A stretch of 64,000 bases of DNA from an uncultured bacterium (GTDB lineage Bacteria; Pseudomonadota; Alphaproteobacteria; MED-G09): positions 8,205 through 72,204 of the forward strand of contig CAXFAF010000006.1 of assembly GCA_964001285.1 (NCBI GenBank), read 5' to 3'. This document shows, piece after piece, positions 25,362 through 41,077 of this stretch. Every line of letters starts with the position of its first letter. The first letter of the stretch is position 1. The notes under the pieces were generated by a model, which was not told where the DNA came from, did not search any database, and worked only from the letters and a program-made list of their open reading frames with translations. Made by a program: the position numbers and the translations under genes.

Positions 25362-25378
25362 GATTTACACCTATAATT

Positions 25379-26101
25379 TTAATTTTCTTGTTCTTCTTGA
25401 TTTTTTACTTTCTGAGTTATTTCTCTTTCAATTCCTAAAGCAAAATCTGAAACATAAGGATTAGTTAACCTTTCTTGACCAAAGGTTGATAAAGGTCCAT
25501 GCCCAGGAATAAATGTCATTTCATCTCCTAATGGCCATAATTCATTAACTATCGAATTTACTAATTGTTCATGATTACCTCTGGGCAAATCTGATCTTCC
25601 TATGGAACCTTGAAAGATAACATCTCCAACTACTGCTAATTGGGCTTTTTCATGAAAGAAGATAATGTGGCCAGGTGTATGCCCAGGACAATGTCTAACA
25701 CCTAATGTTTGATTGCCTATTGTTACTTCATCACCATTTTTTAGATATCTTGTTGTTTCAAAAGATTGGGCCCCCTTTAAACCAAATCTTTCTCCCTGCT
25801 CAGACAGGCTTTCCATTAGAAAAAGGTCTTCTTCATGAGGACCTTCTATAGGAACATTTAACATTTTAGAAAGTTCATTTGCCCCACCTGCATGGTCAAG
25901 ATGAGCATGAGTGATCAAAATTTTTTCAACTGTTATATTATTGTCTTGAACCATCTTAAGAATGTTATCTAAATCTCCACCAGGATCAAAAATAGCTCCT
26001 AATGATGTTTCAACGCACCATACAATTGAACAGTTTTGTTGAAAAGGAGTAACAGGAACAACAACTGCTCTAATTGGTTTTGATTGATTGTTTTCTTCCA
26101 T
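25379..26101 (-). CDS. MBL-fold hydrolase, glyoxalase II / YcbL(GloC)-like
   Basis: THAHLDHAGG (HxHxDH), CPGHTPGH, and downstream GDVIFQGSIGRSDLPRG ... IPGHGP match small hydroxyacylglutathione-hydrolase-like MBL proteins. Confidence 0.8.
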   Translation of the reverse strand: MEENNQSKPIRAVVVPVTPFQQNCSIVWCVETSLGAIFDPGGDLDNILKMVQDNNITVEKILITHAHLDHAGGANELSKMLNVPIEGPHEEDLFLMESLSEQGERFGLKGAQSFETTRYLKNGDEVTIGNQTLGVRHCPGHTPGHIIFFHEKAQLAVVGDVIFQGSIGRSDLPRGNHEQLVNSIVNELWPLGDEMTFIPGHGPLSTFGQERLTNPYVSDFALGIEREITQKVKNQEEQEN

Positions 26102-26104
26102 AAA

Positions 26105-26812
26105 TTAAGAGAAAATTTCCCTAAAAAAATTATCCATTGCCTCAAAAGATCTATCATTAGCGTCTTTGTTAAATGCCATACCGTCTTCAGGTGAGTCAGC
26201 TAATGGATTAGTAAATGCATGGCTTGTACCCCCATAAGCATGAATTTGCCAATCTGCTTTTGCTTTTGTGAGTTCATTAGCTAGCCCATTTACTGCATCG
26301 TGCGGAACCATAGGGTCATCATTGCCATGTAAAACTAAAACTTTAGATGTAATAGTGTTTCCATCCGTATTTCCAGGAGGCGTAAATAAACCATGGAAAG
26401 AAACAACTCCTCCAATATTAGAGCCTGTTCTTGCTAGGTCAAGAACGCATAAACCTCCAAAACAAAATCCTATAGCCCCAGACTTGGACTCATCTATTCC
26501 AACTTTTTCAATAGCTGTTTTATGTGCTAGATTTATTCTTCTTTGAAGAAGCTCTCTATCATCTAGGACTACTTGCATGAGTCCCATATTTTCTTCAGGA
26601 CTTGATCCAACTTTACCTTCTCCATACATATCTACAGCGAAACCAGAATATCCTAATTCATTCATCATCTGAGCTTTTTCTAGAGTAAAATCATCTCTTC
26701 CGGCATATGAGGGTACTACTAGAACCAGCGGGCTGCTATCAGGATTATCTGTTGGGAAAAGAACTCCCTCTAGTCGAACATCATTGTCAAAGTAATCTAC
26801 TTTTTCACTCAT
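26105..26812 (-). CDS. Dienelactone hydrolase family protein
   Basis: Alpha/beta hydrolase with a Cys nucleophile elbow GFCFGG, a His near the C-terminus and a conserved Asp. 235 aa. Confidence 0.8.
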   Translation of the reverse strand: MSEKVDYFDNDVRLEGVLFPTDNPDSSPLVLVVPSYAGRDDFTLEKAQMMNELGYSGFAVDMYGEGKVGSSPEENMGLMQVVLDDRELLQRRINLAHKTAIEKVGIDESKSGAIGFCFGGLCVLDLARTGSNIGGVVSFHGLFTPPGNTDGNTITSKVLVLHGNDDPMVPHDAVNGLANELTKAKADWQIHAYGGTSHAFTNPLADSPEDGMAFNKDANDRSFEAMDNFFREIFS

Positions 26813-26833
26813 AATTTATCTCCTAATTTGTTA

Positions 26834-27607
26834 CTATTCTGGCATAGCGCCTGAGGTGACAGACATTGCATTATCAACTCTTAATTGTGCGCCATTCATA
26901 AATTTTGATTCATCTGAGGCAAGATATAATGCCGCATAAGCGATATCCATTGGTTCACCAGTTTTACTTGCAGGTGCATCCTGATTAGGTGGATTGTCCC
27001 CAAATTTTGCATCCATTTTTTCAGGAACACTTGCAACCATTGGTGTGGCGATTCCTGAAGGATGAATTGAGTTACATCTCACACCATTCTTTTTTAAACC
27101 GCAATGAACTGCAACAGCTCTAGTGTAAGCCTCAATTGCGCCTTTAGCCGCACAATAGGCGGCAACATAAGATTCACCTTGAACAGAAGCTATTGAACAC
27201 ATATTGACAATTGATCCACCACCTGTTTCTGCCATAACTGGGATTGAATATTTGCATCCAAAGAAAGTGCTATCCATATGAACAGCCATAGTAAACCTAT
27301 ATTCTTCTGTTGTCTGATTTTCTGGATCGCCGACTTCAACTATTCCAGCATTATTAACAAGAACATCCAGTCTACCATGAAGTTTAACGGTTTCGGAAAT
27401 TACCTCTTTCCATCTTTCTTCATCGGTCACATCTTGTTGCATAAAAGTAGCACCAATTTCTTCAGCTAATTTTTTTCCTTCATCTTCGGCAACATCAGTT
27501 AAAACAACTTTAGCACCTTCACTAGCAAATAATTTAGCATCTGCTGCACCCAAACCCATAGCTGCACCAGTGATAATTGCTACTTTGTTTTCAAGTCTTC
27601 CTGCCAT
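26834..27607 (-). CDS. Short-chain dehydrogenase/reductase (candidate cis-dihydrodiol dehydrogenase)
   Basis: Coenzyme site TGAAMGLGAADA, catalytic YCAAKGA (YxxxK) and NNAG. Lies immediately downstream of a Rieske oxygenase. Confidence 0.85.
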   Translation of the reverse strand: MAGRLENKVAIITGAAMGLGAADAKLFASEGAKVVLTDVAEDEGKKLAEEIGATFMQQDVTDEERWKEVISETVKLHGRLDVLVNNAGIVEVGDPENQTTEEYRFTMAVHMDSTFFGCKYSIPVMAETGGGSIVNMCSIASVQGESYVAAYCAAKGAIEAYTRAVAVHCGLKKNGVRCNSIHPSGIATPMVASVPEKMDAKFGDNPPNQDAPASKTGEPMDIAYAALYLASDESKFMNGAQLRVDNAMSVTSGAMPE

Positions 27608-27625
27608 ACTAATCCTCCTATTTTA

Positions 27626-29014
27626 TTAAGTATTATTTTCGTTTAAATATTTATCTACCATTAGATGTAAATGTCTTGTTCTCGATTCTTGATAATTGCC
27701 TAAAGTTTGAGCACCCTTTGGACTAGCTTTAAAGCCCTTTGTTTGTGATAAAAGATTGTTTGTGTCTTGATCATATACAGCCCCTAAAAAACCAGTTCCT
27801 TCACATAAAGTATAACTATCATTTATATCCAAGTATTGAGGTTCCGGTGGTAGGGGATGATCTTCACCAGGAATTTTTGGTCGTAAAAATAAGAGATCAA
27901 ATATTGCATGATCTACTCCATCTGGTCTAAATCTATATACCATCGGTAATTGAAGCCCTGGAAAAAAGAAAGCATTAGGAAAAACAAAATATTCTATTGA
28001 ATCAATAGTTTCTGTAACGCTTAAGTGAGAAAAGTCAGATTTATATTTTTCACTCATTTCTTCTTGAACAATTCTTGCATAAACTTCTCTTGCAGTGCTT
28101 CCTTCGGGAACTTTTATTTCACCCGAATCATCATCGAGTCTTCTACCAAGAAGAATATCTAATATTCCTTGTTGGTCAGGTCGGTTATCAGTCACATGAG
28201 GGCTTGTATAGCCTATAGTATGAACAAAACGGGTGATATGATCACCAAAAATGTCATAATCTGCATTAGCATCACCTGCAGTCATAACGCCTTCAGAATG
28301 GGTTTCTAAAACATGATAAGCTTCTAGAAATGCTTCTGCAGAAGCCTTCCAGTTAGCTGGAAGCCTTTTAACTACATGTGTTTCTATATATCTATCTTCA
28401 AGATTCCAATTCTTAAAATGTTCAGGTAACACACCAAGATAATCATTTAAAGGTTTTGCATTTTGGTCAAAATTTACGAAAACAAAACCACCCCAAATAT
28501 CACATTTTAGCTCTGGCAAACTATATTCCTCTTTATTAACATGAGGAAAATCCCAATCGCACGGAAGAAATTCTAGTTTTCCAGAGAGTGACCATGTCCA
28601 GCCATGAAATGGGCATCTAAGTTCTTTGCATATTCCTGAAGTTCCTGAAGGTTTTAATTGCGTTCCCCTATGTAAACATGAATTATAATATGCCTTTATC
28701 TCATCTTTCTCAGATCTAACAATTATTGCTGAAAGATCACCTACATCATAAACATAATAGTCTCCAATTTCTGGAATATGATCAACATGGCAAGCCCACT
28801 GCCATACTCTTGACCACATATGGTCATTTTCTTTTTTTGCGAATTCTTCAGAGATATATCTTTCAAATGGTATGTCTGCATCGCTTATAAATTCATAAGA
28901 CTCTTCCAAAATAGGTGCTGGAGCCCCTGTGCAATCTCTACTTACCAATTCTTTGGTAGATGGATGATCAGGACATCTTGCTTCACCTGGTTTTAGATTT
29001 TTAAGTTCGCTCAT
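27626..29014 (-). CDS. Rieske [2Fe-2S] non-heme-iron oxygenase, alpha subunit (paralog 1)
   Basis: Rieske CLHRGTQL...CPFHGW and mononuclear-iron motif EAYHVLETH (Hx4H). 462 aa. First gene of a minus-strand operon. Confidence 0.88.
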   Translation of the reverse strand: MSELKNLKPGEARCPDHPSTKELVSRDCTGAPAPILEESYEFISDADIPFERYISEEFAKKENDHMWSRVWQWACHVDHIPEIGDYYVYDVGDLSAIIVRSEKDEIKAYYNSCLHRGTQLKPSGTSGICKELRCPFHGWTWSLSGKLEFLPCDWDFPHVNKEEYSLPELKCDIWGGFVFVNFDQNAKPLNDYLGVLPEHFKNWNLEDRYIETHVVKRLPANWKASAEAFLEAYHVLETHSEGVMTAGDANADYDIFGDHITRFVHTIGYTSPHVTDNRPDQQGILDILLGRRLDDDSGEIKVPEGSTAREVYARIVQEEMSEKYKSDFSHLSVTETIDSIEYFVFPNAFFFPGLQLPMVYRFRPDGVDHAIFDLLFLRPKIPGEDHPLPPEPQYLDINDSYTLCEGTGFLGAVYDQDTNNLLSQTKGFKASPKGAQTLGNYQESRTRHLHLMVDKYLNENNT

Positions 29015-29193
29015 GGCTTAAAACCCCCAAATTTATAATGACGATATAACAATAATCTCATATACGAAATACTAAATTTATAAAAATATCAATTTCTTAA
29101 TAAATTATTGACTTTTAGGGGTATTTTTAAAAAATATAATAATATTCTTCAAATTTTGATGTTTATATGTAGACTAGGTCCTATGTTTAGTGG

Positions 29194-29198
29194 GGAGG
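29194..29198 (+). promoter_or_regulatory. Shine-Dalgarno (GGAGG) for the TonB-dependent receptor
   Basis: GGAGG lies 5-6 nt upstream of the ATG at 29204, and a signal peptide begins at that ATG. Confidence 0.6.
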
Positions 29199-29203
29199 TT
29201 TTT

Positions 29204-31402
29204 ATGAAAAAACTAACTATATTTTTTGTTGCTTGTATTTTAGCTATTACAGGCAGTGTTATGGCTGATGAGGGTGAGAACCTACAAAGTTCAGCTAGCA
29301 ATTCTTCAAGTTCTGCAACTAGTCAATCCAATGCTGGTTTGGAAGAGATAGTAGTTACTGCTCGTAAGAGGGAAGAAAGTCTTTTAGATATTCCTGAATC
29401 AGTAGTAGCAATATCAGGATTAAGTATTGATCGTCAAAATATTAAAGGTCTTGATAAAATTGGGTTAGCCATTCCAAACCTTAATCTCGCTATGCGTACA
29501 GATGGATATCCAAATGCTTCCATTAGGGGTATTGGTGCTTTTGGTTTAACACAAGGTGTAGGTTTTTATATTGATGATGTTCAATTATTTAGTGATGCTT
29601 CATCAAGATTTGGAGACTTAGAAAGAATAGAGGTTATAAAGGGTCCACAAGGAACCTTATATGGAGGTAGTAATATTGGTGGAGCCATTAAGTATGTTAG
29701 TAAACGTCCAGATTCAAACGAAACCTCTGGAAGATTAAAACTTCTTGGTGGTGAGCAAGGCGTAATAGATGTTGAAGCTTCTGTTAATATGCCCATTGGT
29801 GATAATGGTTGGGCAATTAGAGTATTTGGGTTTACTAGAGAAGATGATGGATTTATGTATAATCCTAATTCTGATAATGTTGACAATCAAGACCCTGATG
29901 TAGGCGCTTATGACGAAAGTGGAGGGCGTTTATCAATTGCTGGTCAACTTTCGGATAATCTATCACTCTACGCTTCACTTCGCTACAATGAGTATAACGG
30001 CCCAGTAAATAATTGGGCGAGGGAATTAGGTAGTGCACCTAATTTCACTTATCCAAAGACTTTAGATGCGGGTTTAAACCCAACTCATGAAAGAGAAACT
30101 TTTGGAGCACATTTAGAGTTAGTTTTTGAAAGAGAAGGTTATGATGTTACTTCTGTAACCTCCTATACAGATACTGAAAGCACTCGGATTACAGATGTTG
30201 ATTTAACTCAATTCTGGTTTATGAACACATATAGACCCGAAGAATTTGAAATTATAACTCAGGAGATACGATTTACATCAACAACAGAAAGTAATTTTCA
30301 ATGGATAGCAGGTGTTTATGCTTCAAAATATACAAATAATATGGATTCATATTTACACTTCGGTCCGGGGATTATTCTACCTGATAGTGATTTTATTCTA
30401 CCATTTGAATTACGTGACGAAGAAAATACCCATTTAGCAGCTTTTGCTAATATTTCGTATGAAGAAGGTGATTGGAAGTTAGATTTAGGTTTAAGAATAG
30501 ATAGTTGGGAAGAGGATGAAGATAACCTCGATATAGAAACAAATGGAGCACTTCATGCTGGTGTAATTAATGATACTGAAGTTTTACCTCGTATTTCTGT
30601 GACAAGAAATCTGGAGAATGACTCCATGGCTTATTTAACAATATCCAAGGGCTTTGAGCCAGGAGGATTAAATGGATCTACTCCAATTTTAGGTCCTGAT
30701 GGTTCACCAACTCTTTTAGAATTTCAACCTGAAGAAGCCCTTCAATATGAAATTGGCTGGAAAGGGAGTTTTGCAGAAGGTAGAGGTACAGCATCTGTAG
30801 CCGCCTTCTTTATTGATTATAAGAAAAGAGCTTATCAAGTCTTAACCCCTAATCCAAATGGACCAGGTTTGATAGAGGGCATAACGAATGTAGGTAACTC
30901 TGAACAACATGGTGTTGAGTTTGAATTAGCTTATCAATTTAACGAAAGCCATTCGATAAGTCTTGCTGGAGGTATGATTGATGCTGAGTGGGATAATAAT
31001 ACAGTAGCCAATGATACTGATTTAAGCGGTCTGACGCCAGCGAATGTAATCGAGAATAGTTTTTCAATTAACTATAGTTACGATAAACTTCTTGCTAATG
31101 ATATGAATCTCATTGCAGATATTCAATTAAGTCATCAAGGAGAAGGTAAGAGTATGCCGCCTTGGGATTCTATAAATAATCCAGATTACACCGTAATAAA
31201 CATTCAGGCAGGAATAATAAGGGGTCCTTGGGAGTTTATGTTGAATTTGGATAATGCTACTGATGAAGAGTATTATACAGATTTAGAAAATTTCCCTAAT
31301 TTTGGATTTGGCAGCCCTGATATCGAAACGCATCCTACAATTGTTATTGGTACTTATGGTCATCCAAGAATATTATCTGCTAGTTTGACATATAATTTTT
31401 AA
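29204..31402 (+). CDS. TonB-dependent outer-membrane receptor
   Basis: Signal peptide MKKLTIFFVACILAITGSVMA, plug region EEIVVTARKRE..., a long beta-barrel and a C-terminal aromatic residue (...LTYNF). Start chosen at the ATG at 29204 with GGAGG 6 nt upstream; the ORF-track start at 29108 is rejected. Confidence 0.88.
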   Translation: MKKLTIFFVACILAITGSVMADEGENLQSSASNSSSSATSQSNAGLEEIVVTARKREESLLDIPESVVAISGLSIDRQNIKGLDKIGLAIPNLNLAMRTDGYPNASIRGIGAFGLTQGVGFYIDDVQLFSDASSRFGDLERIEVIKGPQGTLYGGSNIGGAIKYVSKRPDSNETSGRLKLLGGEQGVIDVEASVNMPIGDNGWAIRVFGFTREDDGFMYNPNSDNVDNQDPDVGAYDESGGRLSIAGQLSDNLSLYASLRYNEYNGPVNNWARELGSAPNFTYPKTLDAGLNPTHERETFGAHLELVFEREGYDVTSVTSYTDTESTRITDVDLTQFWFMNTYRPEEFEIITQEIRFTSTTESNFQWIAGVYASKYTNNMDSYLHFGPGIILPDSDFILPFELRDEENTHLAAFANISYEEGDWKLDLGLRIDSWEEDEDNLDIETNGALHAGVINDTEVLPRISVTRNLENDSMAYLTISKGFEPGGLNGSTPILGPDGSPTLLEFQPEEALQYEIGWKGSFAEGRGTASVAAFFIDYKKRAYQVLTPNPNGPGLIEGITNVGNSEQHGVEFELAYQFNESHSISLAGGMIDAEWDNNTVANDTDLSGLTPANVIENSFSINYSYDKLLANDMNLIADIQLSHQGEGKSMPPWDSINNPDYTVINIQAGIIRGPWEFMLNLDNATDEEYYTDLENFPNFGFGSPDIETHPTIVIGTYGHPRILSASLTYNF

Positions 31403-31423
31403 TAGCAAAAAATATTAAATAAA

Positions 31424-31450
31424 AAAGGCTCTTTAAAAGAGCCTTTTTTT
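31424..31450. terminator. Bidirectional rho-independent terminator
   Basis: AAAAAA-GGCTCTT-TAAA-AAGAGCC-TTTTTTT: a perfect 7-bp GC-containing stem flanked by an A-run and a T-run, placed between the convergent TBDR (+) and MBL (-) genes. Confidence 0.75.
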
Positions 31451-32327
31451 ATGAGCTATCCGGGTGTTTGACTTCATAAATAAAGTGATCGTCTTTTCTT
31501 TTTACATATCCTGCAGATGGTGTAGCGAAATGTGTGCCAAAAACCAAAATATTTTCATCTGCATATTCTTCAAGTTTTTTTCTTCTCGTTTTTTTAGCAA
31601 GTTCTTTATCCCAATCAGCACTTGATTCCCAATCCAATCTCTCCATTTGACAGGGATGATGTAAAAAATCACCAGTTATTGCTGCCTTTATACCTTGTGC
31701 CTCAATACAAACGCTTACATGACCAGGGGTATGGCCAATTGTAGGTTCAAGGTGAATTCCTTCGCAAATTTTTTCATCCATATCTACGAACTTGACTAAC
31801 CCGGAGTCAATGATTGGTATTATTGAGTCATTTATAAATTCTGCATACCTATGATCGTTTAATTGTTTTTCTGTATGTTCCCATTCTTTCTTGCCGAAGA
31901 GATAATCAGCTTTTTTAAAAGTTGGTTCCCATTTATCATCTACAAGTACTGTATTCCACCCAACATGATCGGTGTGCATATGCGTACATAAAACAGTATC
32001 TATCTTATCAACAGAGTACCCTGATGTTTCTAAGTCTTCTAAAAATCTTGTTTGTAACATATTCCATTGGGGAATATGTCTTTCCTTATCATTTCCAAGA
32101 CATGTATCAACAATTATGCATTTTTCATTTGTTTCAATTATCAGGGCATGAATGCTTACAATTGTATTTCCTTCACTATCAGAAAAGTAAGGTTGTAGCC
32201 ATGGCATTTTCAGGATTTCTTCAGGTACCGCATCAGGAACAACAAACATTGGCCCAGCTCTTTCACCTTCAATAATTCTTGTTATTTTTATATCGCCAAT
32301 ATTCCAACTACTGATTTTATTATTCAT
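31449..32327 (-). CDS. MBL-fold metallo-hydrolase (lactonase-like)
   Basis: CTHMHTDHVGW (HxHxDH), GHTPGH, TGD and GTHF supply the full metallo-beta-lactamase ligand set. 292 aa. Confidence 0.8.
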   Translation of the reverse strand: MNNKISSWNIGDIKITRIIEGERAGPMFVVPDAVPEEILKMPWLQPYFSDSEGNTIVSIHALIIETNEKCIIVDTCLGNDKERHIPQWNMLQTRFLEDLETSGYSVDKIDTVLCTHMHTDHVGWNTVLVDDKWEPTFKKADYLFGKKEWEHTEKQLNDHRYAEFINDSIIPIIDSGLVKFVDMDEKICEGIHLEPTIGHTPGHVSVCIEAQGIKAAITGDFLHHPCQMERLDWESSADWDKELAKKTRRKKLEEYADENILVFGTHFATPSAGYVKRKDDHFIYEVKHPDSS

Positions 32328-32329
32328 TA

Positions 32330-32629
32330 TTATCCTGGATAATCAATTTGGTTGGCTTCATAAAATTTTGCATCAGTTTCTGGTGGATCACTTGCAAGTG
32401 CTCCAATGAAAGTTGCCACATGATCTGTTTTTAAATGATCCTTAAGTGATTGCAAATCTTCCCATAATTCAGTTATCCTTATATTAGCTTTGTTATGAAG
32501 CTCAACACTAAAGGCATAATCCACGCAGCCATTCTCTTCTCTGGTTTTGATCTCTAATTGTTGTACAGCTTCCTTTACTGTTTCAAAATTATTATCGTTT
32601 GTTTTCATTATTGCATTTACTACAATCAT
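32330..32629 (-). CDS. ABM (antibiotic biosynthesis monooxygenase / Dabb) domain protein
   Basis: 99 aa ferredoxin-like ABM fold, pattern ...VKEAVQQLEIKTREENGCVDYAF...ELWEDLQSLKDH. Confidence 0.7.
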   Translation of the reverse strand: MIVVNAIMKTNDNNFETVKEAVQQLEIKTREENGCVDYAFSVELHNKANIRITELWEDLQSLKDHLKTDHVATFIGALASDPPETDAKFYEANQIDYPG

Positions 32630-32773
32630 TTAGACCTCCTAATTTTTTAATTTTATTATCCCAAAATCATTATTTATTAATACATTTAAAACTTACAACA
32701 CATTTGTTTATTTTTTTTATTTTGTACTATTACTTTTTTTAGATAATATCTAATCATTAATTGGGGGAAATTA

Positions 32774-34144
32774 GTGCCACAACGCTTTGATCATATAGAT
32801 TTTTCTGACCAAATAACGGCGGATCCTAAGCATAATGCTAAGTTATCTAGTGATAGATATACTTGTCCTGATTTTATGCAATTAGAATGGGAAAAGATTT
32901 GGACTCAGTGTTGGTTATTTGCAGGTTTGGAATCTGATATTCAAGATGTGGGTGAATTTTTTGTTTATGATATAGGAAGAGAGTCAATAATAGTTACTCG
33001 AAATGAGAACAACAAAATTTCTGCATTTTATAATAGTTGCCAACATAGAGGTAACAAGATTTTAACTCAAGAATCTGGTTGGGTTAAACAAGTATCTTGT
33101 CCCTACCATGGTTGGACCTATGGTTTAGATGGAGAGCTTAAGAAAGTTCCCGATGCAGAATTATTCGAAGATAATGTTTTATGCGAAGAAAATTCCTTGA
33201 AATCTGTTTGTGTAGAGACTTGGGCGGGTATGATTTTTATAAATATGAGTGAGAATCCAGCCTCTCTTAGAATTTTCTTAGGAAAAATCATGGATCAACT
33301 TGGTCCATATCATTTTGAGAATATGCAACTAGTAAAACATCAGAGTGTAACATTGGATACGAATTGGAAAACAGTAAGGGATAATTTTTTAGAACAATAT
33401 CATGTTGATTTCATTCACCCCCAGCATGCTAGTTTCGTTGATTGTTGTGATGCACAAAATTATCTATGGCCTTTCGGTCATACTCACACATGTGTTGAAA
33501 GTCCCGTAATGAATCCTCGATATCCCATGCCAGAAGAGCCACCTGAATACATGATTCAATATCTCAAAGGTTTGGAGCTTAATCCAGATGATTATCATGG
33601 TAAGGTTCCAGAAATTAGAAAGGTTATTCAAAAACAAAAAAGAGTAATTGGCAAAAAACTTGGTTTTGATTATTCGGAACTTTCCGATGAGCAGGTTTCC
33701 GATGTTTTTCAATATGATATTTTTCCAAATTTATTTATGACAATTCATGCTGAGAGGGTTTGGCTTTATGGCCCTAGACCCCACCTTTCGGATCCAAATA
33801 AATGCACTTTTACAAAATTTAGCTTAATGCTGCCGGAAGATAAAATTCGAGATGAAAAAAAGGGTTTAGAGCTCCTTCCTGGTTCTTATGATTATGAGTA
33901 TTCTGAAACAAGAGTAGAGCATGAAGTTTTTACAAGACAAGATGTAATAGAAGGACGAAATTCTATGACTGTTACTATAGACCAAGACATTCATTATCTT
34001 AATGATATGCAGGCAGGTATGCATTCCCGTGGTTTTGACAAAGCTATTTTAAGTGATGATGAAGAAAGATTACAGCATTTCCATAACTGGGTTGATAATT
34101 GGTTAAGTGACAATTCATCTTGGTCTAAAATAAGTCAATCATAA
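32774..34144 (+). CDS. Rieske non-heme-iron oxygenase alpha subunit (paralog 2)
   Basis: GTG start with GGGGGAAA upstream. Rieske CQHRGNKI...CPYHGW and Fe site EQYHVDFIHPQH. 456 aa. Confidence 0.85.
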   Translation: MPQRFDHIDFSDQITADPKHNAKLSSDRYTCPDFMQLEWEKIWTQCWLFAGLESDIQDVGEFFVYDIGRESIIVTRNENNKISAFYNSCQHRGNKILTQESGWVKQVSCPYHGWTYGLDGELKKVPDAELFEDNVLCEENSLKSVCVETWAGMIFINMSENPASLRIFLGKIMDQLGPYHFENMQLVKHQSVTLDTNWKTVRDNFLEQYHVDFIHPQHASFVDCCDAQNYLWPFGHTHTCVESPVMNPRYPMPEEPPEYMIQYLKGLELNPDDYHGKVPEIRKVIQKQKRVIGKKLGFDYSELSDEQVSDVFQYDIFPNLFMTIHAERVWLYGPRPHLSDPNKCTFTKFSLMLPEDKIRDEKKGLELLPGSYDYEYSETRVEHEVFTRQDVIEGRNSMTVTIDQDIHYLNDMQAGMHSRGFDKAILSDDEERLQHFHNWVDNWLSDNSSWSKISQS

Positions 34145-34161
34145 TAAGAGCCTAGCAAATT

Positions 34162-35559
34162 ATGAGTGATACGAAATTACCAAAAAAAACTTTGTTCTTC
34201 TATGGTCTTTCAGAGATGCCATTATCGATTGCTTCTCTTCCTTTGTTGGCTTTTATACCAAATTATTATGTATCAGATTTAGGGCTTGATTTTGCTGTTG
34301 TCGCATTAGTTATGCTTTTGGCTAGATCATTTGATGCCGTTACTGATCCCTTGATTGGGTATTTAAGTGATAGGACTGATACGCGATGGGGAAGAAGACG
34401 GATATGGATGTTTTTATCAATCCCTATTTTAATGATAGCGGCTTATAAAATATTTTTTCCTCAAAATCTTTGGGAATTTGTTCCTTTTAGTCTCGATTTT
34501 CTTTCTTTGAATTTAGGAGCAGGGGGTCACTATCTTTTGTTTTGGTTTTTAGTGCTTTGGTTTGGATGGAGTATGCTTTTTATTCCTTATTATTCTTGGG
34601 CTGCAGAATTATCTTCAGATTATAATGAAAGATCGACTATTGTTGGCTGGCGCATGTTTATTGGGACATTTGGTAATGCCATATCCAAATTTTTACCGGC
34701 TATTGCTTTGTTATTTTTTGCTTATGGGGGAGCCGAGGAGACTATTATAATTATTGGAGCTGTTTTTCTTTTGGTTATTCCAATTTGTATAAGTTTATCA
34801 ATTTTCAATGTCCCTGAGAGAATGGATTATCAGACCAAGCAGGGGTCTATTAAAGAAGGTCTAAAGGCTATGTGGAAGAACAAAGCCTTTAGGCAGTTAA
34901 TTTTTGCATACTTTTTTAATTATATAGGGGTAACTCTTTCAACTTTAACAGTTATGTTTTTTATTAGGGGTGTTACAGGAGAAGAAGAGCAAGGTATTCT
35001 TTATTTCATTTTTTACTATGTTGCTAATCTTATTGGAATTCCCTTTTGGCTTTGGCTTTCAAAAAAAATAGGAAAACATAATGCCTGGAAGATAGGCTTA
35101 GGTGTCTTCACAGTAATGCAGCCATGTTATTTTTTCCTGGGTCAGGGAGATTATTATTGGATGTTTCCAATTACTACAATTGCTGGTTTAGCAGGATCAA
35201 CATTTCATCTTATACCGCATGCCATGAAGGCAGATGTTATAGATTATGATACTTATCTTACTGGTGAAGATAGAGCAGCACAGTTTTTTGCCGCATGGTC
35301 ATTTATAACGAAAATGGCTATTGCTATTGCCCCATTTTTTGCCTTCACATATTTAGATTTAATAGGCTTTAACTCTACGCCCGGAGCAATAAATAGTCCG
35401 GAGCAAATACTGGGGTTAAAAATATTATTTTGTTTTGCCCTTCCGCTATTTCTAATAATCGCTATTTTGTGTGTTCGTGATTATCCTATTACACAAGCAA
35501 AACAAGAAGAGATTCGAAAAGAGATAGAAACTCAAAAAAAACAATTACAAGGAGTATAA
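34162..35559 (+). CDS. GPH-family (glycoside-pentoside-hexuronide:cation symporter, MelB-like) MFS transporter
   Basis: The N-terminal signature FYGLSEMPLSIASLP...DAVTDPLIGYLSDRTDTRWGRRR is diagnostic of GPH/MelB-type symporters. 12 TM. Confidence 0.85.
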   Translation: MSDTKLPKKTLFFYGLSEMPLSIASLPLLAFIPNYYVSDLGLDFAVVALVMLLARSFDAVTDPLIGYLSDRTDTRWGRRRIWMFLSIPILMIAAYKIFFPQNLWEFVPFSLDFLSLNLGAGGHYLLFWFLVLWFGWSMLFIPYYSWAAELSSDYNERSTIVGWRMFIGTFGNAISKFLPAIALLFFAYGGAEETIIIIGAVFLLVIPICISLSIFNVPERMDYQTKQGSIKEGLKAMWKNKAFRQLIFAYFFNYIGVTLSTLTVMFFIRGVTGEEEQGILYFIFYYVANLIGIPFWLWLSKKIGKHNAWKIGLGVFTVMQPCYFFLGQGDYYWMFPITTIAGLAGSTFHLIPHAMKADVIDYDTYLTGEDRAAQFFAAWSFITKMAIAIAPFFAFTYLDLIGFNSTPGAINSPEQILGLKILFCFALPLFLIIAILCVRDYPITQAKQEEIRKEIETQKKQLQGV

Positions 35560-35560
35560 A

Positions 35561-36082
35561 ATGAGCGACGCTTTAGAAAGAGTTATTGCAAAATCTGAAA
35601 TTTATGATCTTTCATGCAAATATATGAGAGGTCTAGATAGATTAGATATAGAATTGTTGAAATCTGTTTTTCATGATGGTGCTTGGTGCGATTATGGTTT
35701 TACAAAAAGTGATGCTCCAACATTTGCTCAATTCTGTATGGATGCACTCAAAGAACATCATGCTAATCATCATATGATTGGTAATGTTTTGATAGAATTC
35801 AGCGACAATAAAGATGAAGCTTTTGGTGAAGTCTATTTTCAGGCTTATCACAAAGTTGATGAAGACGGTCAAATGAATGATGTTTTTATTTCTGGACGAT
35901 ATCTTGATCGTTATGAAAAAAGAGATGGTATTTGGAAGATGGTATACAGATCTGAAATTGTAGATTGGTCACGAACTGAACCAACCCATGAACCATATTT
36001 TGATTCAGCTCCAGATTGTTTTCGAGGTGGTCGTCAAGATGATAGAGTTTATGATACTAAAGATAGATATAATCCAAATTAA
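35561..36082 (+). CDS. SnoaL_4 / NTF2-like domain protein (paralog A)
   Basis: 173 aa, with IYDLSCKYMRGLDRLDIELLKSVFHDGA (NTF2-like SnoaL_4 pattern). Paralogous to 44901..45434; C-terminal regions align (SGRYLDRYEKRDGIWK vs SGRYIDRFERRNGEWK). Confidence 0.75.
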   Translation: MSDALERVIAKSEIYDLSCKYMRGLDRLDIELLKSVFHDGAWCDYGFTKSDAPTFAQFCMDALKEHHANHHMIGNVLIEFSDNKDEAFGEVYFQAYHKVDEDGQMNDVFISGRYLDRYEKRDGIWKMVYRSEIVDWSRTEPTHEPYFDSAPDCFRGGRQDDRVYDTKDRYNPN

Positions 36083-37423
36083 TTAATTTTTAACTACCCT
36101 TACATTTTTTCTTCTCGATTTTGAAGAAGGTTGTAGTGCGAGACTCAACTGATCATCGTTAATTTCATATGGGATGTCATTTACTAAAAGATCTTTATAA
36201 AATTTACCATCTTTCATAACTGATACAATGCGATCGTGATCTTGGAGTACTGTTATATCTTCTAATGGGTTACCATCTATAACAACTAAATCAGCAAGTT
36301 TTCCTTCTTCCAGGGTTCCTAAGGAACCATCTGGGTGCATAGCTAACCCACCTAATCTTGTAGCTGAATGAATAGCTTCTGCATTAGTAAATCCAAAATG
36401 AGTTACATAATATTCTAGATCCTTTGCATATGTTCCATGAGGTGTGATGTTGAGACCATAATCACCTCCAACAAGAATACGAATACCAGCAGCCTGCATT
36501 TTTTTATAAGAAATAATCGTTTCTTCAAGTTCTTTCTTATAAGCTATCACTTCCCTGCTGTTTTCATCAAAACCCATATCTTTATAATTTTCTAGGAAGG
36601 TAATTTCCCAAGCTATTGCAGGACCAACAAATACTTTATCTTTATTCTTAACAAGAAGATCAAGTGCCTCATCATCGATATAATTTGCGTGACCAATGAA
36701 GTCTATACCAGCTTTGACAGCCTGTTTAACAGCTTCGGACGATCTTGCGTGACAAGCAACTCTCATTTTTTTTCTATGTGCCTCATCAACAATTACTTCT
36801 ACCTCTTCATCTGTGAAGCCTAAATCACCGGGCCTTCCTTGAAGTGATATAATTTCTCCATCTATCATAACCTTCACTATTTCTGCCCCATTTTTCCATA
36901 ACTGTCTTACCGCTGCTCTTAATTCCCATGGTCCATTCCTTATCATGCCCAAACCTTCTGGAACGATTTGTACATTGTCTGGATAAAAATCAGAATTTCC
37001 TCCTGTAGCAGAAATATCTTTACTTCCAGCTAGAAGACGAGGTCCTGGAATTTCTCCTCTTTCAATAGCTTCTTTTAAAAAGACATCAATTTTATGAACA
37101 GAACCAAAACTAATTGCTGACGTGAAACCAGATCCCAACATCAATCTCGCGTTGGAAATAGTTTTAATCATGGACTCTTCAACAGGAGCTTTGTCTAATT
37201 CCAATGGTCCACTGTTCGAATAAGAAATATGAGCATGTGCTTCAACCATACCAGGCATCACAAATAAACCATTACCATCGATGGTTTGAATATTGTCAGG
37301 AATATCTTCTAAGTTCTTTGAAGGTCCAGCATAGCGAATTAAGTTATTTTCAATCCAAATTGAAGAATCTTCTATAAGTTTATCGCCAGTCCCATCAAAC
37401 AATCTTATGTTTGTTATTAACAT
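36083..37423 (-). CDS. Metal-dependent amidohydrolase family protein
   Basis: 446 aa, with an N-terminal HxH metal site (PGMVEAHAHISY) and the TIM-barrel amidohydrolase layout. Confidence 0.8.
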   Translation of the reverse strand: MLITNIRLFDGTGDKLIEDSSIWIENNLIRYAGPSKNLEDIPDNIQTIDGNGLFVMPGMVEAHAHISYSNSGPLELDKAPVEESMIKTISNARLMLGSGFTSAISFGSVHKIDVFLKEAIERGEIPGPRLLAGSKDISATGGNSDFYPDNVQIVPEGLGMIRNGPWELRAAVRQLWKNGAEIVKVMIDGEIISLQGRPGDLGFTDEEVEVIVDEAHRKKMRVACHARSSEAVKQAVKAGIDFIGHANYIDDEALDLLVKNKDKVFVGPAIAWEITFLENYKDMGFDENSREVIAYKKELEETIISYKKMQAAGIRILVGGDYGLNITPHGTYAKDLEYYVTHFGFTNAEAIHSATRLGGLAMHPDGSLGTLEEGKLADLVVIDGNPLEDITVLQDHDRIVSVMKDGKFYKDLLVNDIPYEINDDQLSLALQPSSKSRRKNVRVVKN

Positions 37424-37434
37424 CTTAATTCCTT

Positions 37435-38415
37435 TTAGTTTTCCAATCTAAGAAGTTTTTTTGCATTATTTGTTAAATCTGGAGCAAAATCTTCTAATTT
37501 TTTTGGCGTATCCCAACCCCCAAAATTGGTACCATAAACTAATCTATCTTCTCCAATTAAGTCAAATAACATTTTTTGAGACTTTTCTCCATGTACATGT
37601 GCGTCGAACCACAAACGCTTGAGTTCATTGACAAATCCATTCTTTTTAACACCCTCAGGAGCCCAATCACGGAATTCAGACATTTCAGAAAAACGCTCTA
37701 TCAAATATGGCATTGCACCTCCACCATGTGATATACAAATATCCAAATCAGGATGACGATCCATAACACCTCCAATAATAAGTGTAGCTACAGCAAGTGT
37801 TTCTTCATATGCATAACCTAACATAATACTCATATCGTATCGTCCCATTCGCCAATCATCAGGACCTTCTGCACCACCAGTAGAGGCAGGGTGTAAGAAT
37901 AAAGGGATATTAAGATCAATTACAGTTTTGTAGAAATCATCTAATCTTGGATCATCAAGTCCAAAAGGATAATCTGTACCTGTTGATACGGCCACAAGCC
38001 CAAGATCCTTAACTGCTCGTTCAAGTTCTTTACATGCTAAATCAACATCTTGCATTGGTAAAGTAGCGGATCCTAATAACCTATCAGGATATTCATTAAT
38101 TGATTCTACCATTGCATCATTATGAATTTTACAAAACTCATTAGCAACATCTCCTTCAATCCTGTGGAACATAGTTAATGGATTGGGAGATAGTAACTGT
38201 AAATCAATTCCTAATTTATCCATGGCTTCGATACGAAGGTTATTTTCCATAAAAATAGTTCCTTCATATTGCATTGGCTTCATTTTATATTCACCAATAC
38301 GAAAATAAGGGATCCCATTTTCATCTAGACCTGTTTCAGGGCCATATTTTCCAGCTTTACCAAAAGCTTTACCCAGAACAATATGGGCGTGAGTATCAAT
38401 TACATTTATTGTCAT
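37435..38415 (-). CDS. Amidohydrolase_2 family protein (ACMSD / LigI / LigW-like decarboxylase-hydrolase)
   Basis: N-terminal IDTHAH, internal FLHP, ISHGGG and Asp positions typical of the ACMSD superfamily. 326 aa. Confidence 0.8.
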   Translation of the reverse strand: MTINVIDTHAHIVLGKAFGKAGKYGPETGLDENGIPYFRIGEYKMKPMQYEGTIFMENNLRIEAMDKLGIDLQLLSPNPLTMFHRIEGDVANEFCKIHNDAMVESINEYPDRLLGSATLPMQDVDLACKELERAVKDLGLVAVSTGTDYPFGLDDPRLDDFYKTVIDLNIPLFLHPASTGGAEGPDDWRMGRYDMSIMLGYAYEETLAVATLIIGGVMDRHPDLDICISHGGGAMPYLIERFSEMSEFRDWAPEGVKKNGFVNELKRLWFDAHVHGEKSQKMLFDLIGEDRLVYGTNFGGWDTPKKLEDFAPDLTNNAKKLLRLEN

Positions 38416-38420
38416 TTTTT

Positions 38421-38771
38421 TTAATCATCCGCAAATAATACTGTTCTCGGATTGCCTTCTTCATCATATACGGATTTATGCTTATCAATTAAATACATTT
38501 GATTTTCAGTTTCTCGTATACCAACAGAATTTAAAGCTTCCACCATTTCTAAATAGGTGTGGTGACTGAAATGGGCTATGAGAGAATCTTCATCTTTCCA
38601 AAGTTCATAAACTTGAATCCTATTTGGAACGCAAGGATCTGCTGCAAAACAATAACTAATGCAACCTTCTTCCTCCGTTCGTGTTGCCAGTTGAATATCG
38701 GCAGTTAATTCAATAGCCTTATCTCTGCCAGCTTCATTTTCAAAATCTAGGGTTGCTGAAATAATAATCAT
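38421..38771 (-). CDS. ABM / Dabb-like monooxygenase domain protein
   Basis: 116 aa ferredoxin-like fold, with ...RTEEEGCISYCFAAD...YELWKDEDSLIAHF. Confidence 0.7.
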   Translation of the reverse strand: MIIISATLDFENEAGRDKAIELTADIQLATRTEEEGCISYCFAADPCVPNRIQVYELWKDEDSLIAHFSHHTYLEMVEALNSVGIRETENQMYLIDKHKSVYDEEGNPRTVLFADD

Positions 38772-38780
38772 GTTTTTCTC

Positions 38781-40118
38781 CTATTCAAAGTAGCTTTCAA
38801 TCATTTCGTGAAATCTTCTTATTCGTTTTTCTTGTCCTGCAAAATATGCCCTGTCAAATCCTCTAGACCTGAGACCATGTTGTTGAAGAATAAATACTGC
38901 TGAATCTTGATCTATAGTTTGGCCAAGACTTTTTTCTCCGAGATCAAAGACTTCATGTTCAGCATATTCTCCTCTTTCTGAAATTCCTACAGTTGTTCTA
39001 ATTGGAGAAGTTTCATGTTCAGGGTTACTTGCATACCACCAATTGTCGAAGACACATTTCTCTGGGTCCGTTGGATGAGGTTTTGCTCTTAAAAAATGGA
39101 ATCCATCTGCCCACAATGAAACTGCAAAATTGGGAAAGAGGGTATAGTGAAAGGCGTCTGTTAATTGTTCATCTCTCAAATTTTTATAATGGGTATATCC
39201 TTTTTTTGGACCTATTTCTCTTTTAGCGATTTGTATGGCTACCCTTGTCTCTTGCCCTTTACCAGAGAAATCATCAGGATTAATTTCCCATTCCTTCATA
39301 ACTGAATTTAGAGGATCTTCTATTTGTCCATCTTCTTGCATAGATCCATACCCGGCTCGCATGATCATTCTGTTATGACCCTCTTCTGATAGGTCAAATT
39401 GTGTATTTTTATAGCTAGTATCAACGCCACTTGGCATTCTTCTTTTTGTTACAGCTCGCTCAGGGGCATGTACTGTTGGGAGATGATAAGATTCATTAAA
39501 ATTATCAAGAATTATTTTCCAATTACAAGGTACATTTACGGTTTGCGCAACATATCTTTTCCATTTATGAATTTCATAAGCTTCCCAATCTTTCCATACT
39601 GGACCTAACCATTCTTTTAATGAAGGCGCTTTTTCATGCATGTTAATCCAAATAAAACCTGCAAATGTTTCTGTTTTAACTTCTTTTAATTTAAGTTTTC
39701 CGCATGGATTTCCTTCAGGAAAATCTTCAGAGTCTTGTGCTTCAATAAGTTCGCCGTCTATTCTCCACTGCCAACCATGATAAGGACATTTGAAAGTTTC
39801 TGTTGATCCAAGATCGTTAAATGTCAATCTTGCTCCTCTGTGTTGGCAAACATTATAAAAAGTTTTTATTTTATTATTATCTTGGCGTATCATTAGGAAG
39901 CTTTCTCTTCCAAATTCTTCCATTTGGTAATCACCAGGTTCAGGAATTTGATCCTCTCTTCCTAAAAGTAACCAAACCTTTGGCCACATATGGGCCCATT
40001 CTTTTTCCATAAATTCTTTAGAATAATAGCGTGTTCCATCGACATCCAATCCTTTAAGATCAGGATTATCCCAAGAAGGACTTTCTTTTTTATACCAATC
40101 TAAATCAATTACATTCAT
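38781..40118 (-). CDS. Rieske non-heme-iron oxygenase alpha subunit (paralog 3)
   Basis: Rieske CQHRGARL...CPYHGW and Fe site DNFNESYHLPTVH. 445 aa. Confidence 0.88.
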   Translation of the reverse strand: MNVIDLDWYKKESPSWDNPDLKGLDVDGTRYYSKEFMEKEWAHMWPKVWLLLGREDQIPEPGDYQMEEFGRESFLMIRQDNNKIKTFYNVCQHRGARLTFNDLGSTETFKCPYHGWQWRIDGELIEAQDSEDFPEGNPCGKLKLKEVKTETFAGFIWINMHEKAPSLKEWLGPVWKDWEAYEIHKWKRYVAQTVNVPCNWKIILDNFNESYHLPTVHAPERAVTKRRMPSGVDTSYKNTQFDLSEEGHNRMIMRAGYGSMQEDGQIEDPLNSVMKEWEINPDDFSGKGQETRVAIQIAKREIGPKKGYTHYKNLRDEQLTDAFHYTLFPNFAVSLWADGFHFLRAKPHPTDPEKCVFDNWWYASNPEHETSPIRTTVGISERGEYAEHEVFDLGEKSLGQTIDQDSAVFILQQHGLRSRGFDRAYFAGQEKRIRRFHEMIESYFE

Positions 40119-40159
40119 CTACACACCTAAATTTTTTATAATCTTTCTTTCTATTAAAT

Positions 40160-40960
40160 TTAAAAAGTAGTATTTCCAATTCCGCCATCTATAACAAGAC
40201 TTTGTCCTATAACATAAGAAGCTTGTTGACTACAAAACATTGCAACAAAAGAACCTAAATCATCAGAAGATCCAAATTTTTTTGCTGGAATCTTCCAATT
40301 TTCAACAAAATTAGCAATTTCTTCATCATAAGATGTTCCATTTTCTTCTGCTAATTTATTATATCTTTCCTTAATGCTCGCAGTATGATGCATTCCGGGC
40401 AATATATTGTTTATCACAACATTATGTTTTGCAACTTTTTTTGAGACTGCTACTGAATAATTTACTAATGCCGCCCTTGGAGGGCCTGATAAAATTCTTA
40501 CTTCAGTTGGTGTTTTAGCTGCACCAGTACCGATATTAACTATACGTCCCCATTTTCTTTCTACCATACCAGGAATTATTGCTTTCATAAATTCTACAGG
40601 ACTAAGAAGTGCAACATCTAAAGTCTGCTTCCATTCATCAGTACTAACCTTTTCGTAGCTGTAAGTAAAAGGTGGAGGGGTGCATGTTCCAACTAAAATA
40701 TCAGGATTAGGACAAGCAGATATAATTTTTTCTCTTCCTTCATCTGTACTGTGATCAGCAACTATAGGCTCTACTTTTACATTAGTAGCTTTTTTAATTT
40801 CTTCACAGGTTTGTAATAATCTATCTTCTCCACGAGCAGAAATAAATAGATCAACACCTTCTTTAGCGAGAGCAAAAGCACTGCCTTTTCCCATTCCTGC
40901 GCTACCGCCATTGATAATTGCTTTTCTACCTTTAATACCTAAATCCATAATTTCCCCCAT
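40160..40960 (-). CDS. Short-chain dehydrogenase/reductase family protein
   Basis: Gly-rich coenzyme loop NGGSAGMGKGSA and Rossmann topology. First gene of the minus-strand operon 40960 to 36083. The catalytic tetrad spacing is atypical. Confidence 0.75.
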   Translation of the reverse strand: MGEIMDLGIKGRKAIINGGSAGMGKGSAFALAKEGVDLFISARGEDRLLQTCEEIKKATNVKVEPIVADHSTDEGREKIISACPNPDILVGTCTPPPFTYSYEKVSTDEWKQTLDVALLSPVEFMKAIIPGMVERKWGRIVNIGTGAAKTPTEVRILSGPPRAALVNYSVAVSKKVAKHNVVINNILPGMHHTASIKERYNKLAEENGTSYDEEIANFVENWKIPAKKFGSSDDLGSFVAMFCSQQASYVIGQSLVIDGGIGNTTF

Positions 40961-40969
40961 ATATTAGTA

Positions 40970-40998
40970 TTGAAACACTATAGTTTGAAAAATTTCAA
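40970..40998. promoter_or_regulatory. Candidate operator: TTGAAA half-sites (direct repeat plus 14-bp palindrome TTGAAA-aa-TTTCAA)
   Basis: TTGAAAcactatagtTTGAAAaaTTTCAA sits in the 117-bp divergent spacer between the SDR-Rieske operon (-) and the KstD-like/NmrA/P450 operon (+). Confidence 0.3.
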
Positions 40999-41077
40999 TA
41001 TTTTTAAAGTTACAACTACCTTTTTTGTCTAGATAAATTAAAAATCTTTTATTAGAGTCCAACTACATTGAGGTAAA

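Follow-up and report, generated by a model that had tools for sequence, protein, structure and literature searches.

Five genes lying in one direction on the minus strand of a 64,000-nucleotide stretch from an uncultured bacterium (GTDB lineage Alphaproteobacteria; MED-G09; contig CAXFAF010000006.1, positions 8,205 to 72,204; hereafter the window, meaning the whole 64 kb) raise the question of whether a short-chain dehydrogenase/reductase (SDR), a Rieske oxygenase, an ABM protein and two amidohydrolases make up a single route for the breakdown of aromatic acids, as an original prediction made from the sequence alone had proposed. We found that the five-gene set is an ordinary lineage-specific arrangement and not a conserved pathway unit. 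Only its last three genes (ABM-AH2-AH1, hereafter the triad or block A) are conserved across classes and phyla, and their central product, AH2, carries an asparagine where ACMSD (2-amino-3-carboxymuconate-6-semialdehyde decarboxylase) and the related decarboxylases carry a strand-8 aspartate. The window has a GC content of approximately 33%, and its sequence assigns it to a streamlined marine alphaproteobacterium of the PS1/OCS116 clade. The five genes and the intergenic region beside them are as follows:

40160..40960, minus strand: SDR, 266 residues, block B (Pfam adh_short and adh_short_C2)
38781..40118, minus strand: Rieske3, Rieske non-haem iron oxygenase alpha subunit, 445 residues, block B (Pfam Rieske and Ring_hydroxyl_A)
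38421..38771, minus strand: ABM-family protein, 116 residues, first gene of the triad, block A (Pfam ABM, 36.8 bits)
37435..38415, minus strand: AH2, Amidohydro_2 protein of the ACMSD branch, 326 residues, centre of the triad (Pfam PF04909, 109.8 bits)
36083..37423, minus strand: AH1, binuclear-metal Amidohydro_1 protein, 446 residues, third gene of the triad (Pfam Amidohydro_1)
40961..41077, no strand assigned: divergent intergenic region of 117 bp between the SDR-Rieske3 and FAD-NmrA-P450 genes

The layout is exactly as originally described: all five open reading frames (ORFs) start with ATG and are separated, from SDR to AH1, by 41, 9, 5 and 11 nt, all five proteins score above the Pfam gathering thresholds, and the motifs IDTHAH and ISHGGG are present as residues 6-11 and 228-233 of AH2. 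The true start of the SDR is probably its second ATG (Met5, coordinate 40948), because the closest solved homologues (5vps, 5idx and 5va8) begin MDLGI. Shine-Dalgarno-like sites were located 5' of Rieske3 (AGGTG), ABM (AGGAG, overlapping the stop codon of Rieske3) and AH1 (AAGGA). No terminator-like hairpin was found on the minus strand between 35.4 and 41.4 kb, and promoter-like matches were fewer in the cluster (16) than in shuffled sequence (mean 23.4). The five genes are probably co-transcribed in this PS1/OCS116-clade genome, and the 117-bp region is a probable bidirectional promoter region for the SDR-Rieske3 and FAD-NmrA-P450 genes. Their spacing is no tighter than the background of the window, which is approximately 97% coding and in which the gap is ≤41 nt for 42 of the 49 co-directional gene pairs (median 9 nt). 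Because background gaps are equally short, adjacency alone is weak evidence for functional linkage, and conserved synteny is the relevant test.

Synteny was assessed by searching one genome per GTDB species with the family alignment and keeping the best 80 loci, onto which the island proteins of the window were mapped; 65 of these loci lie outside PS1/OCS116, in Pseudomonadales, other Alphaproteobacteria and Acidimicrobiia. An ABM orthologue stands immediately upstream of the AH2 gene at 45 of 60 assessable non-PS1 loci and at 15 of 15 PS1 loci, an Amidohydro_1 orthologue immediately downstream at 44 of 60 assessable non-PS1 loci, and the complete triad was present at 32 of 55 non-PS1 loci and 12 of 12 in PS1/OCS116. 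The triad proteins of the non-PS1 loci are each approximately 50-60% identical to their window counterparts. A Rieske alpha gene was located within 8 kb at only 3 of the 65 non-PS1 loci. The triad is portable, being conserved across Alphaproteobacteria, Gammaproteobacteria and Acidimicrobiia in aquatic, mostly marine bacteria. One AH2 orthologue (L052) belongs to a species in culture, 'Candidatus Litorirhabdus singularis' IMCC14734.

Within PS1/OCS116, the arrangement of the remaining genes depends on the relative that is compared, and involves the following neighbours on the far side of the SDR:

41078-42712, plus strand: KstD-family flavoprotein desaturase (FAD), divergent partner of block B (Pfam)
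42715-43623, plus strand: NmrA-like protein, divergent partner of block B (Pfam)
43647-44891, plus strand: cytochrome P450, divergent partner of block B (Pfam)
44901-45434, minus strand: SnoaL_4 protein, paired with Rieske4 (Pfam)
45451-46797, minus strand: Rieske4, Rieske alpha paralogue (Pfam, synteny)

In the window and the seven nearest loci (L001-L007, 94-98% identical to the window over the Amidohydro_2 protein) the order is [Rieske4-SnoaL][P450-NmrA-FAD / SDR-Rieske3][ABM-AH2-AH1], and in L009, L010 and L012 it is [Rieske4-SnoaL][ABM-AH2-AH1][P450-NmrA-FAD / SDR-Rieske3]. SDR-Rieske3 therefore travels with FAD-NmrA-P450 as block B, and the triad is a separate cassette. The divergent layout of SDR-Rieske3 and FAD-NmrA-P450 is kept wherever block B is present (L001-L007, L009, L010 and L012), SDR-Rieske3 adjoins the triad only in the closest PS1 relatives, and in L009, L010 and L012-L015 orthologues of the Rieske4-SnoaL_4 pair immediately precede the triad. 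The proposal that the five genes are one pathway unit is not borne out by these swaps or by the conservation of the triad alone across classes and phyla; the two-block structure, together with the family placements of the proteins given below, is very probably correct.

The same data could be read as chance juxtaposition, in which unrelated catabolic genes are packed co-directionally in a 97%-coding streamlined genome and each block has a different substrate. Such packing is consistent with the background gap statistics, with the block swap among close relatives and with the occurrence of the triad beside housekeeping genes elsewhere (at L084 it is flanked by PEPCK and Glu-Cys ligase genes on one side and a TonB receptor on the other). 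It fits poorly with the finding that at 15 of 15 PS1/OCS116 loci a Rieske-containing unit directly precedes the triad in the same orientation, with the P450, SnoaL_4, SDR and Rieske set found right after the triad in an unrelated alphaproteobacterium (L082/L083), or with the overlap of ribosome-binding site and stop codon at the Rieske3/ABM junction, which suggests translational coupling. We consider chance alone an unlikely explanation.

At three loci of Gammaproteobacteria (L081, 9653-15101; L085, 7651-13645; L087, 7651-16083) the triad is extended co-directionally by genes for a group II pyridoxal phosphate-dependent decarboxylase, an acyl-CoA ligase and a GFA-family protein. Upstream of the triad there is a carboxylesterase gene, and beyond it are genes for an SDR and an enoyl-CoA hydratase. 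In L087 a TonB receptor gene is inserted in the extended triad, and an SBF (bile acid:Na+ symporter family) gene is present too. Sets of Rieske, SnoaL_4 and SDR genes recur in L082/L083 and L086.

We place AH2 on the ACMSD branch of the amidohydrolases and not with LigI. Its best PDB match is human ACMSD (E 2e-36 with the single sequence; best E 1.7e-46 with the family profile, to human and Pseudomonas ACMSD), followed by gamma-resorcylate decarboxylase (gamma-RSD), LigW, 2,3-dihydroxybenzoic acid (2,3-DHBA) decarboxylase (2,3-DHBD), LigY, IDCase and LigJ; LigW, gamma-RSD, 2,3-DHBD and IDCase, which share its superfamily branch and are metal-dependent enzymes that decarboxylate (hetero)aromatic acids non-oxidatively, matched with E-values of 1e-15 to 1e-32. 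The Amidohydro_2 (beta/alpha)8 barrel fold is supported by Pfam PF04909, by an AlphaFold2 model (pLDDT 89.3, pTM 0.90) and by Foldseek, in which ACMSD is closest (TM 0.83, 25-28% identity). No NCBIfam model matches AH2. No LigI-type lactonase was present among the 45 PDB sequences matched by AH2 or the family profile; a LigI-like lactonase was accordingly rejected as a candidate for lack of PDB similarity, so that of the ACMSD/LigI/LigW likeness first suggested for AH2, the ACMSD/LigW/gamma-RSD/IDCase part holds and the LigI part is withdrawn.

In Pseudomonas ACMSD (pfACMSD) the metal ligands are His9, His11, His177 and Asp294 (the last, on strand 8, a Zn ligand), the catalytic residue is His228, and the substrate carboxylate is bound by the pair Arg51 and Arg239*, the latter contributed by the adjacent subunit (PMC11650718). 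The strand-8 Asp of LigW (Asp314), gamma-RSD (Asp287), 2,3-DHBD and IDCase (Asp323) serves both to bind the metal and, as general acid, to protonate the substrate at its ipso carbon (PMC8187880). We compared these positions with an alignment of 24 AH2 family members (56-86% identical to the window protein), in which 89 positions are invariant, including H9, H11, R39, H175, H230, D271, H273, N297, W301 and D302. The TIM barrel, the HxH motif (H9, H11) and strand-5 histidine (H175) at the metal-ligand positions, the strand-6 histidine of HGGG (H230, equivalent to pfACMSD His228), the D271 motif and the nearly invariant interface arginine R241 (aligned with Arg239*/Arg235) are all shared with ACMSD (PDB 2hbv, 2wm1 and 4ofc), and Arg51 pairs with the invariant R39 or with K46 according to the alignment used. 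The strand-8 Asp position, in contrast, is occupied by Asn297 in all 24 members (GTNFGGWD in place of GTDY/GSDY), which in the secondary structure of the model stands just after the last barrel strand, as expected, and position 197, equivalent to the carboxylate-binding Trp194 of ACMSD (human Trp191), is Ile or Leu in all 24. AH2 further departs from ACMSD in an extra Glu205, in His273, His84 and Tyr201, which are specific to the triad family, and in an insertion of approximately 8 residues after the FR motif. From LigW, gamma-RSD, 2,3-DHBD and IDCase it differs in having Asn where these enzymes carry the general-acid Asp, and Asn is also the residue of an engineered IDCase variant, D323N, crystallised with substrate (4LAM; PMC8187880); 4lak and 4lam are among the matches of AH2. 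With its histidine ligands, His230 and R241 kept, and its strand-8 Asp and Trp194 replaced, AH2 has thus lost the catalytic residues of the ACMSD clade in part.

The asparagine is not confined to this locus. When 1.84 billion representatives were searched exhaustively with a profile, 13,093 hits were obtained; 118 of the best 150 were near-full-length, and of these 33 (approximately 30%) had Asn and 75 had Asp at the strand-8 position. Glu205 accompanied Asn in 25 of 33 and Asp in 5 of 75 (Fisher's exact test, p ~6e-13, a value that ignores phylogenetic relatedness). The closest PDB match of a divergent Asn-type member is still wild-type ACMSD, and therefore no Asn-type structure has been solved. 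The whole active-site shell is under strong constraint, which argues that AH2 is a functional enzyme whose site has been remodelled, and not a pseudoenzyme.

Many Asn-type members (P0006, P0009, P0018, P0024 and others) bear the JGI name 'aminocarboxymuconate-semialdehyde decarboxylase'. Within the window we scanned the island and most ORFs of ≥110 residues across the 64 kb, and found no gene of the ACMSD pathway (3-hydroxyanthranilate dioxygenase or aminomuconate semialdehyde dehydrogenase) among them; the same genes were absent from the neighbour families that recur at the 65 non-PS1 loci, as scanned with Pfam, and from the Pfam-annotated loci L081-L088, and AH2 differs from ACMSD in having no kynurenine or nitrobenzoate pathway genes nearby. 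Because the strand-8 Asp is absent and there is no kynurenine-pathway context, the ACMSD label on Asn-type proteins is a probable systematic over-annotation. A fusion protein, P0122 (701 residues), has an Asn-type AH2 domain with Ser in place of His230 and an N-terminal part that, by eye only, resembles a medium-chain dehydrogenase or quinone oxidoreductase.

On either side of AH2, the two other triad proteins are also well conserved. AH1 aligns end to end with PDB entries 2qs8 (E 2.6e-54), 3mtw (E 1.8e-51), 4c5y and 8ihq (E 1e-33 to 1e-54 overall), and its binuclear ligands H63, H65, K184, H225, H245 and D321 are ≥95% conserved in 57 orthologues and align with those of 2qs8 and 3mtw. We place it in the group of the Cc2672 Arg carboxypeptidase, the Xaa-Pro dipeptidase 2qs8 and ochratoxinase/ADH3, which we take to be cog1228; the full ligand set (HxH, a Lys that is carboxylated in such enzymes, His, His, Asp) is shared with that group, and the metal centre appears intact. 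AH1 is unlike the group in a C-terminal extension of approximately 35 residues and in falling below the equivalog cutoff (265 bits against NCBIfam XaaProDiPepCaul; cutoff 500). For the ABM protein, a small barrel typical of its family, the PDB matches are weak and LsrG-like, and the positions of its motif EEGC..YCFA.DP...IQVYELW...L.AHF.H..Y are ≥90% conserved in 63 syntenic orthologues.

These placements leave room for a reading in which the substrates of the triad are ortho-hydroxy aromatic acids held in amide linkage, for example fragments of catecholate siderophores or aroyl-amino acids resembling ochratoxin: AH1 would free the acid, AH2 would be a true decarboxylase with Glu205 or Asp302 as proton donor, and the ABM protein, acting like YgiN, would oxidise a quinol or catechol. 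The relationship of AH1 to ochratoxinase, ADH3 and LlADH, which cleave the aroyl-amino-acid amide, and that of AH2 to the 2,3-DHBA, salicylate and gamma-resorcylate decarboxylases are consistent with such a route, TonB-dependent receptors are frequent neighbours, and the covarying Glu205 could supply the missing carboxylate. Nevertheless, AH2 scores higher against ACMSD (129-162 bits) than against the hydroxybenzoate decarboxylases (60-115 bits), neighbour scans of related loci gave no catechol or hydroquinone ring-cleavage genes beside the triad, and the recurrent neighbours (enoyl-CoA hydratase, acyl-CoA ligase, SDRs and esterases) suggest aliphatic or alicyclic acyl chemistry. We consider this reading about as unlikely as chance juxtaposition.

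The enzymes in and around block B do not suggest a route for substituted benzoates. The closest PDB entries of the SDR (5vps, 5idx and 5va8; 183-192 bits) are all labelled only 'Short-chain dehydrogenase/reductase SDR', and in all three, as in the window protein, the catalytic Ser/Tyr/Lys positions are Thr/Ser/Arg (NIGT...LSGPPR). Seven classical SDRs, drawn from the window and from related loci, keep S...YxxxK; the classical SDR of the window has S...Y-CAA-K as against T...S-GPP-R. The role of diol dehydrogenase that the SDR had been given, and with it a classical cis-diol dehydrogenase as candidate, was rejected on the absence of the catalytic Tyr and Lys, and the protein looks like a member of an uncharacterised SDR subfamily without the canonical triad of residues.

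The ligands of Rieske3 (C91-x-H93...C111-x-x-H114, H212, H217 and D351) are invariant in the four Rieske alpha paralogues of the island, which are 26-40% identical and lie within 20 kb, and we infer that D351 is the carboxylate of its 2-His-1-carboxylate iron site. The best NCBIfam models for Rieske3 are GbcA (117 bits; cutoff 670) and HcaE, GbcA being best, far below its cutoff, for all four paralogues, and the best PDB matches, which cover the N-terminal half only, are HcaE, phthalate and biphenyl dioxygenases and CntA. Because GbcA, HcaE and CntA score about equally, monooxygenase and dioxygenase chemistry are indistinguishable for Rieske3. The scanned ORFs contain no Rieske reductase, ferredoxin or canonical beta subunit; the SnoaL_4 proteins, whose matches to Ring_hydroxyl_B are faint and sub-threshold (E 0.02-0.1), might serve as divergent Rieske beta subunits.

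The flavoprotein at 41078-42712, outside the coordinates of the five genes, resembles KstD and ChcC1 over its full length and scores below both equivalog cutoffs (4-oxocyclohexanecarboxylate 2-dehydrogenase, 420 bits, cutoff 1000; 3-ketosteroid delta-1-dehydrogenase, 412 bits, cutoff 789). Together with P450, NmrA and SnoaL_4 it suggests the oxidation of alicyclic ketones rather than of benzoates.

This bears directly on the single aromatic-acid route, in which the Rieske oxygenase would hydroxylate or demethylate a benzoate or heteroaromatic acid, the SDR would re-aromatise the cis-diol and AH2 would decarboxylate the product, with ABM and AH1 as accessory proteins. Its closest analogue is the picolinate (pic) cluster, which comprises a Rieske-containing monooxygenase, the Amidohydro_2 protein PicC, amidases, a Mo-dehydrogenase and a ring-cleavage dioxygenase; the last two are absent here, and the two systems are likened by description only. 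In Alcaligenes faecalis JQ135, a hydroxylation step is reported to precede the decarboxylation of 3,6-dihydroxypicolinate by PicC (bioRxiv 10.1101/457895, 10.1101/530550). The cluster is a precedent for combining a Rieske hydroxylase, an Amidohydro_2 decarboxylase and amidases. The five co-directional genes without terminator-like sites, the position of AH2 on the decarboxylase branch of Amidohydro_2 and the retention of the arrangement in L001-L008 and L011 also agree with this route. Against these stand the general-acid Asp replaced by Asn in 24 of 24 aligned family members, the SDR without Tyr and Lys, Rieske and SDR genes that are unlinked to AH2 outside PS1 (3 of 65 loci) and separable inside it, gaps at the genome background and flanking enzymes of alicyclic appearance. 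The scanned ORFs gave no beta subunit or reductase and, as first noted for this locus, no ring-cleavage enzyme. The five-gene 'aromatic acid operon' is not a new pathway, and an aromatic decarboxylation route, being weakly supported, is improbable.

AibH2 is an Amidohydro_2 diiron monooxygenase with a Rieske-type ferredoxin partner (PMC7782822), and AH2 shares with AibH1H2 and PtmU3 the Amidohydro_2 fold and membership among proteins of non-hydrolytic chemistry, the Aib system having the Rieske-type partner. That AH2 is likewise an O2-activating TIM-barrel hydroxylase drawing electrons through the neighbouring Rieske protein, as this precedent and weak PDB matches to 6m1w and 6omp would allow, is very improbable and was rejected on ligand pattern and remote similarity, since the AibH2 ligands Asp25, His27, His211, Glu265, Asp337 and His340 are unmatched (AH2 has HxH, His230 and Asn297), 6m1w scores 38-41 bits as against 129-162 bits for ACMSD, Rieske3 is a full 445-residue oxygenase alpha subunit and not a small ferredoxin of 169 residues, and there is no Rieske gene near AH2 at 62 of 65 non-PS1 loci.

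The explanation that we prefer, while holding it to fall somewhat short of probable, is the juxtaposition of two blocks in a flexible catabolic island, with the triad as a real functional unit. Block B and the other oxygenases of the island would oxidise imported alicyclic or heterocyclic dissolved organic compounds, and the triad would then process an amide-containing, carboxylated intermediate. AH1, as an enzyme of the N-acyl-amino-acid or carboxypeptidase type, would hydrolyse the amide bond next to the carboxylate. AH2 would bind the substrate carboxylate through Arg241 plus R39 or K46 and, with a metal-bound water activated by His230 and with Glu205 or His273 as auxiliary acid/base, would carry out a hydration, tautomerisation or decarboxylation that avoids the classical Asp-protonation route of LigW, gamma-RSD and IDCase; ACMSD itself catalyses oxaloacetate tautomerisation (PMC11650718). 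The ABM protein would add a cofactor-free oxidation or isomerisation. These reaction assignments for the triad are tentative, possible rather than probable. Homarine/trigonelline, mycosporine-like amino acids, siderophore fragments and conjugated bile salts were considered as substrates, and no evidence discriminates among them.

A related proposal, also doubtful at present, is that the triad is an uncharacterised cassette whose AH2 belongs to a new catalytic subclass of the ACMSD family (Asn on strand 8 with a compensating Glu205, here also His273), performing a reaction so far undescribed for the amidohydrolase superfamily, with an abundant, possibly algal metabolite that contains an amide and a carboxylate as its substrate. 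The triad is widespread among oligotrophs that are abundant in aquatic habitats, namely PS1/OCS116, OM182, Porticoccaceae, Halieaceae, Azotimanducaceae and planktonic Acidimicrobiia.

Several points weigh against the two-block explanation as we have set it out. The co-directional position of the triad downstream of a Rieske gene, constant at all 15 PS1 loci, could reflect real functional coupling in that clade. Asn297 could ligate the metal all the same, and a normal decarboxylase mechanism might be recovered with the help of Glu205 or Asp302; the figure for the covariation of N297 and E205 ignores phylogenetic relatedness. The alicyclic interpretation draws on sub-threshold family matches, and, since no member of the triad is characterised, its reaction assignments are all made by homology at 25-35% identity.

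The catabolic island that holds both blocks spans approximately 24 kb (24.1-47.8 kb), with L21, obg and proB to its left and kdsB and pheA to its right, all of them housekeeping genes. In total it encodes four Rieske alpha paralogues, two ABM proteins, two SnoaL_4 proteins, two MFS-type transporters and two metallo-beta-lactamase-fold (MBL) proteins, together with one TonB-dependent receptor and a cytochrome c-domain protein. Its features beyond those given above are:

24108..36082, no strand assigned: rest of the island, with MFS, MBL, dienelactone-hydrolase-family protein, classical SDR, Rieske1 and TonB-dependent receptor (Pfam, NCBIfam)
24108..36082, no strand assigned, continued: MBL (lactonase-like), ABM, Rieske2, GPH-family symporter and SnoaL_4 (Pfam, NCBIfam)
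27626-29014, minus strand: Rieske alpha paralogue other than Rieske3 and Rieske4
32774-34144, plus strand: Rieske alpha paralogue other than Rieske3 and Rieske4
35561-36082, plus strand: second SnoaL_4 protein, adjoining Rieske genes
25379-26101, minus strand: MBL protein
31449-32327, minus strand: MBL protein resembling YtnP/AidB/AiiA-type lactonases, with scores below their cutoffs

No tRNA, tmRNA or Rfam family, sought as island markers, was detected in the 64 kb. Outside the island, a tyrosine recombinase ORF of the Phage_integrase family (7585-8889, minus strand, 434 residues, TTG start) lies between lpd and priA and overlaps a transaldolase-family gene (8852-9508) by 38 nt; its true start is probably further downstream, and it may be XerC/D rather than a mobile-element integrase.

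What is new at this locus is the conserved ABM-AH2-AH1 cassette and a broad Asn-type ACMSD-like clade that is absent from solved structures, from NCBIfam and from the literature searched, in which no paper dealt with the triad, with an Asn-type ACMSD-like enzyme or with catabolic islands of PS1. To our knowledge, nearly every member of the amidohydrolase superfamily has the strand-8 Asp. The existence of a large, constrained natural Asn clade (33 of the 118 nearest representatives) implies an alternative active-site solution, and metabolic models of marine bacterioplankton could go astray through the ACMSD label on its members. Several abundant lineages of the ocean and of fresh water carry the cassette beside transporters and oxidative enzymes, and knowledge of its substrate could bring to light a hitherto overlooked way in which dissolved organic matter is turned over.

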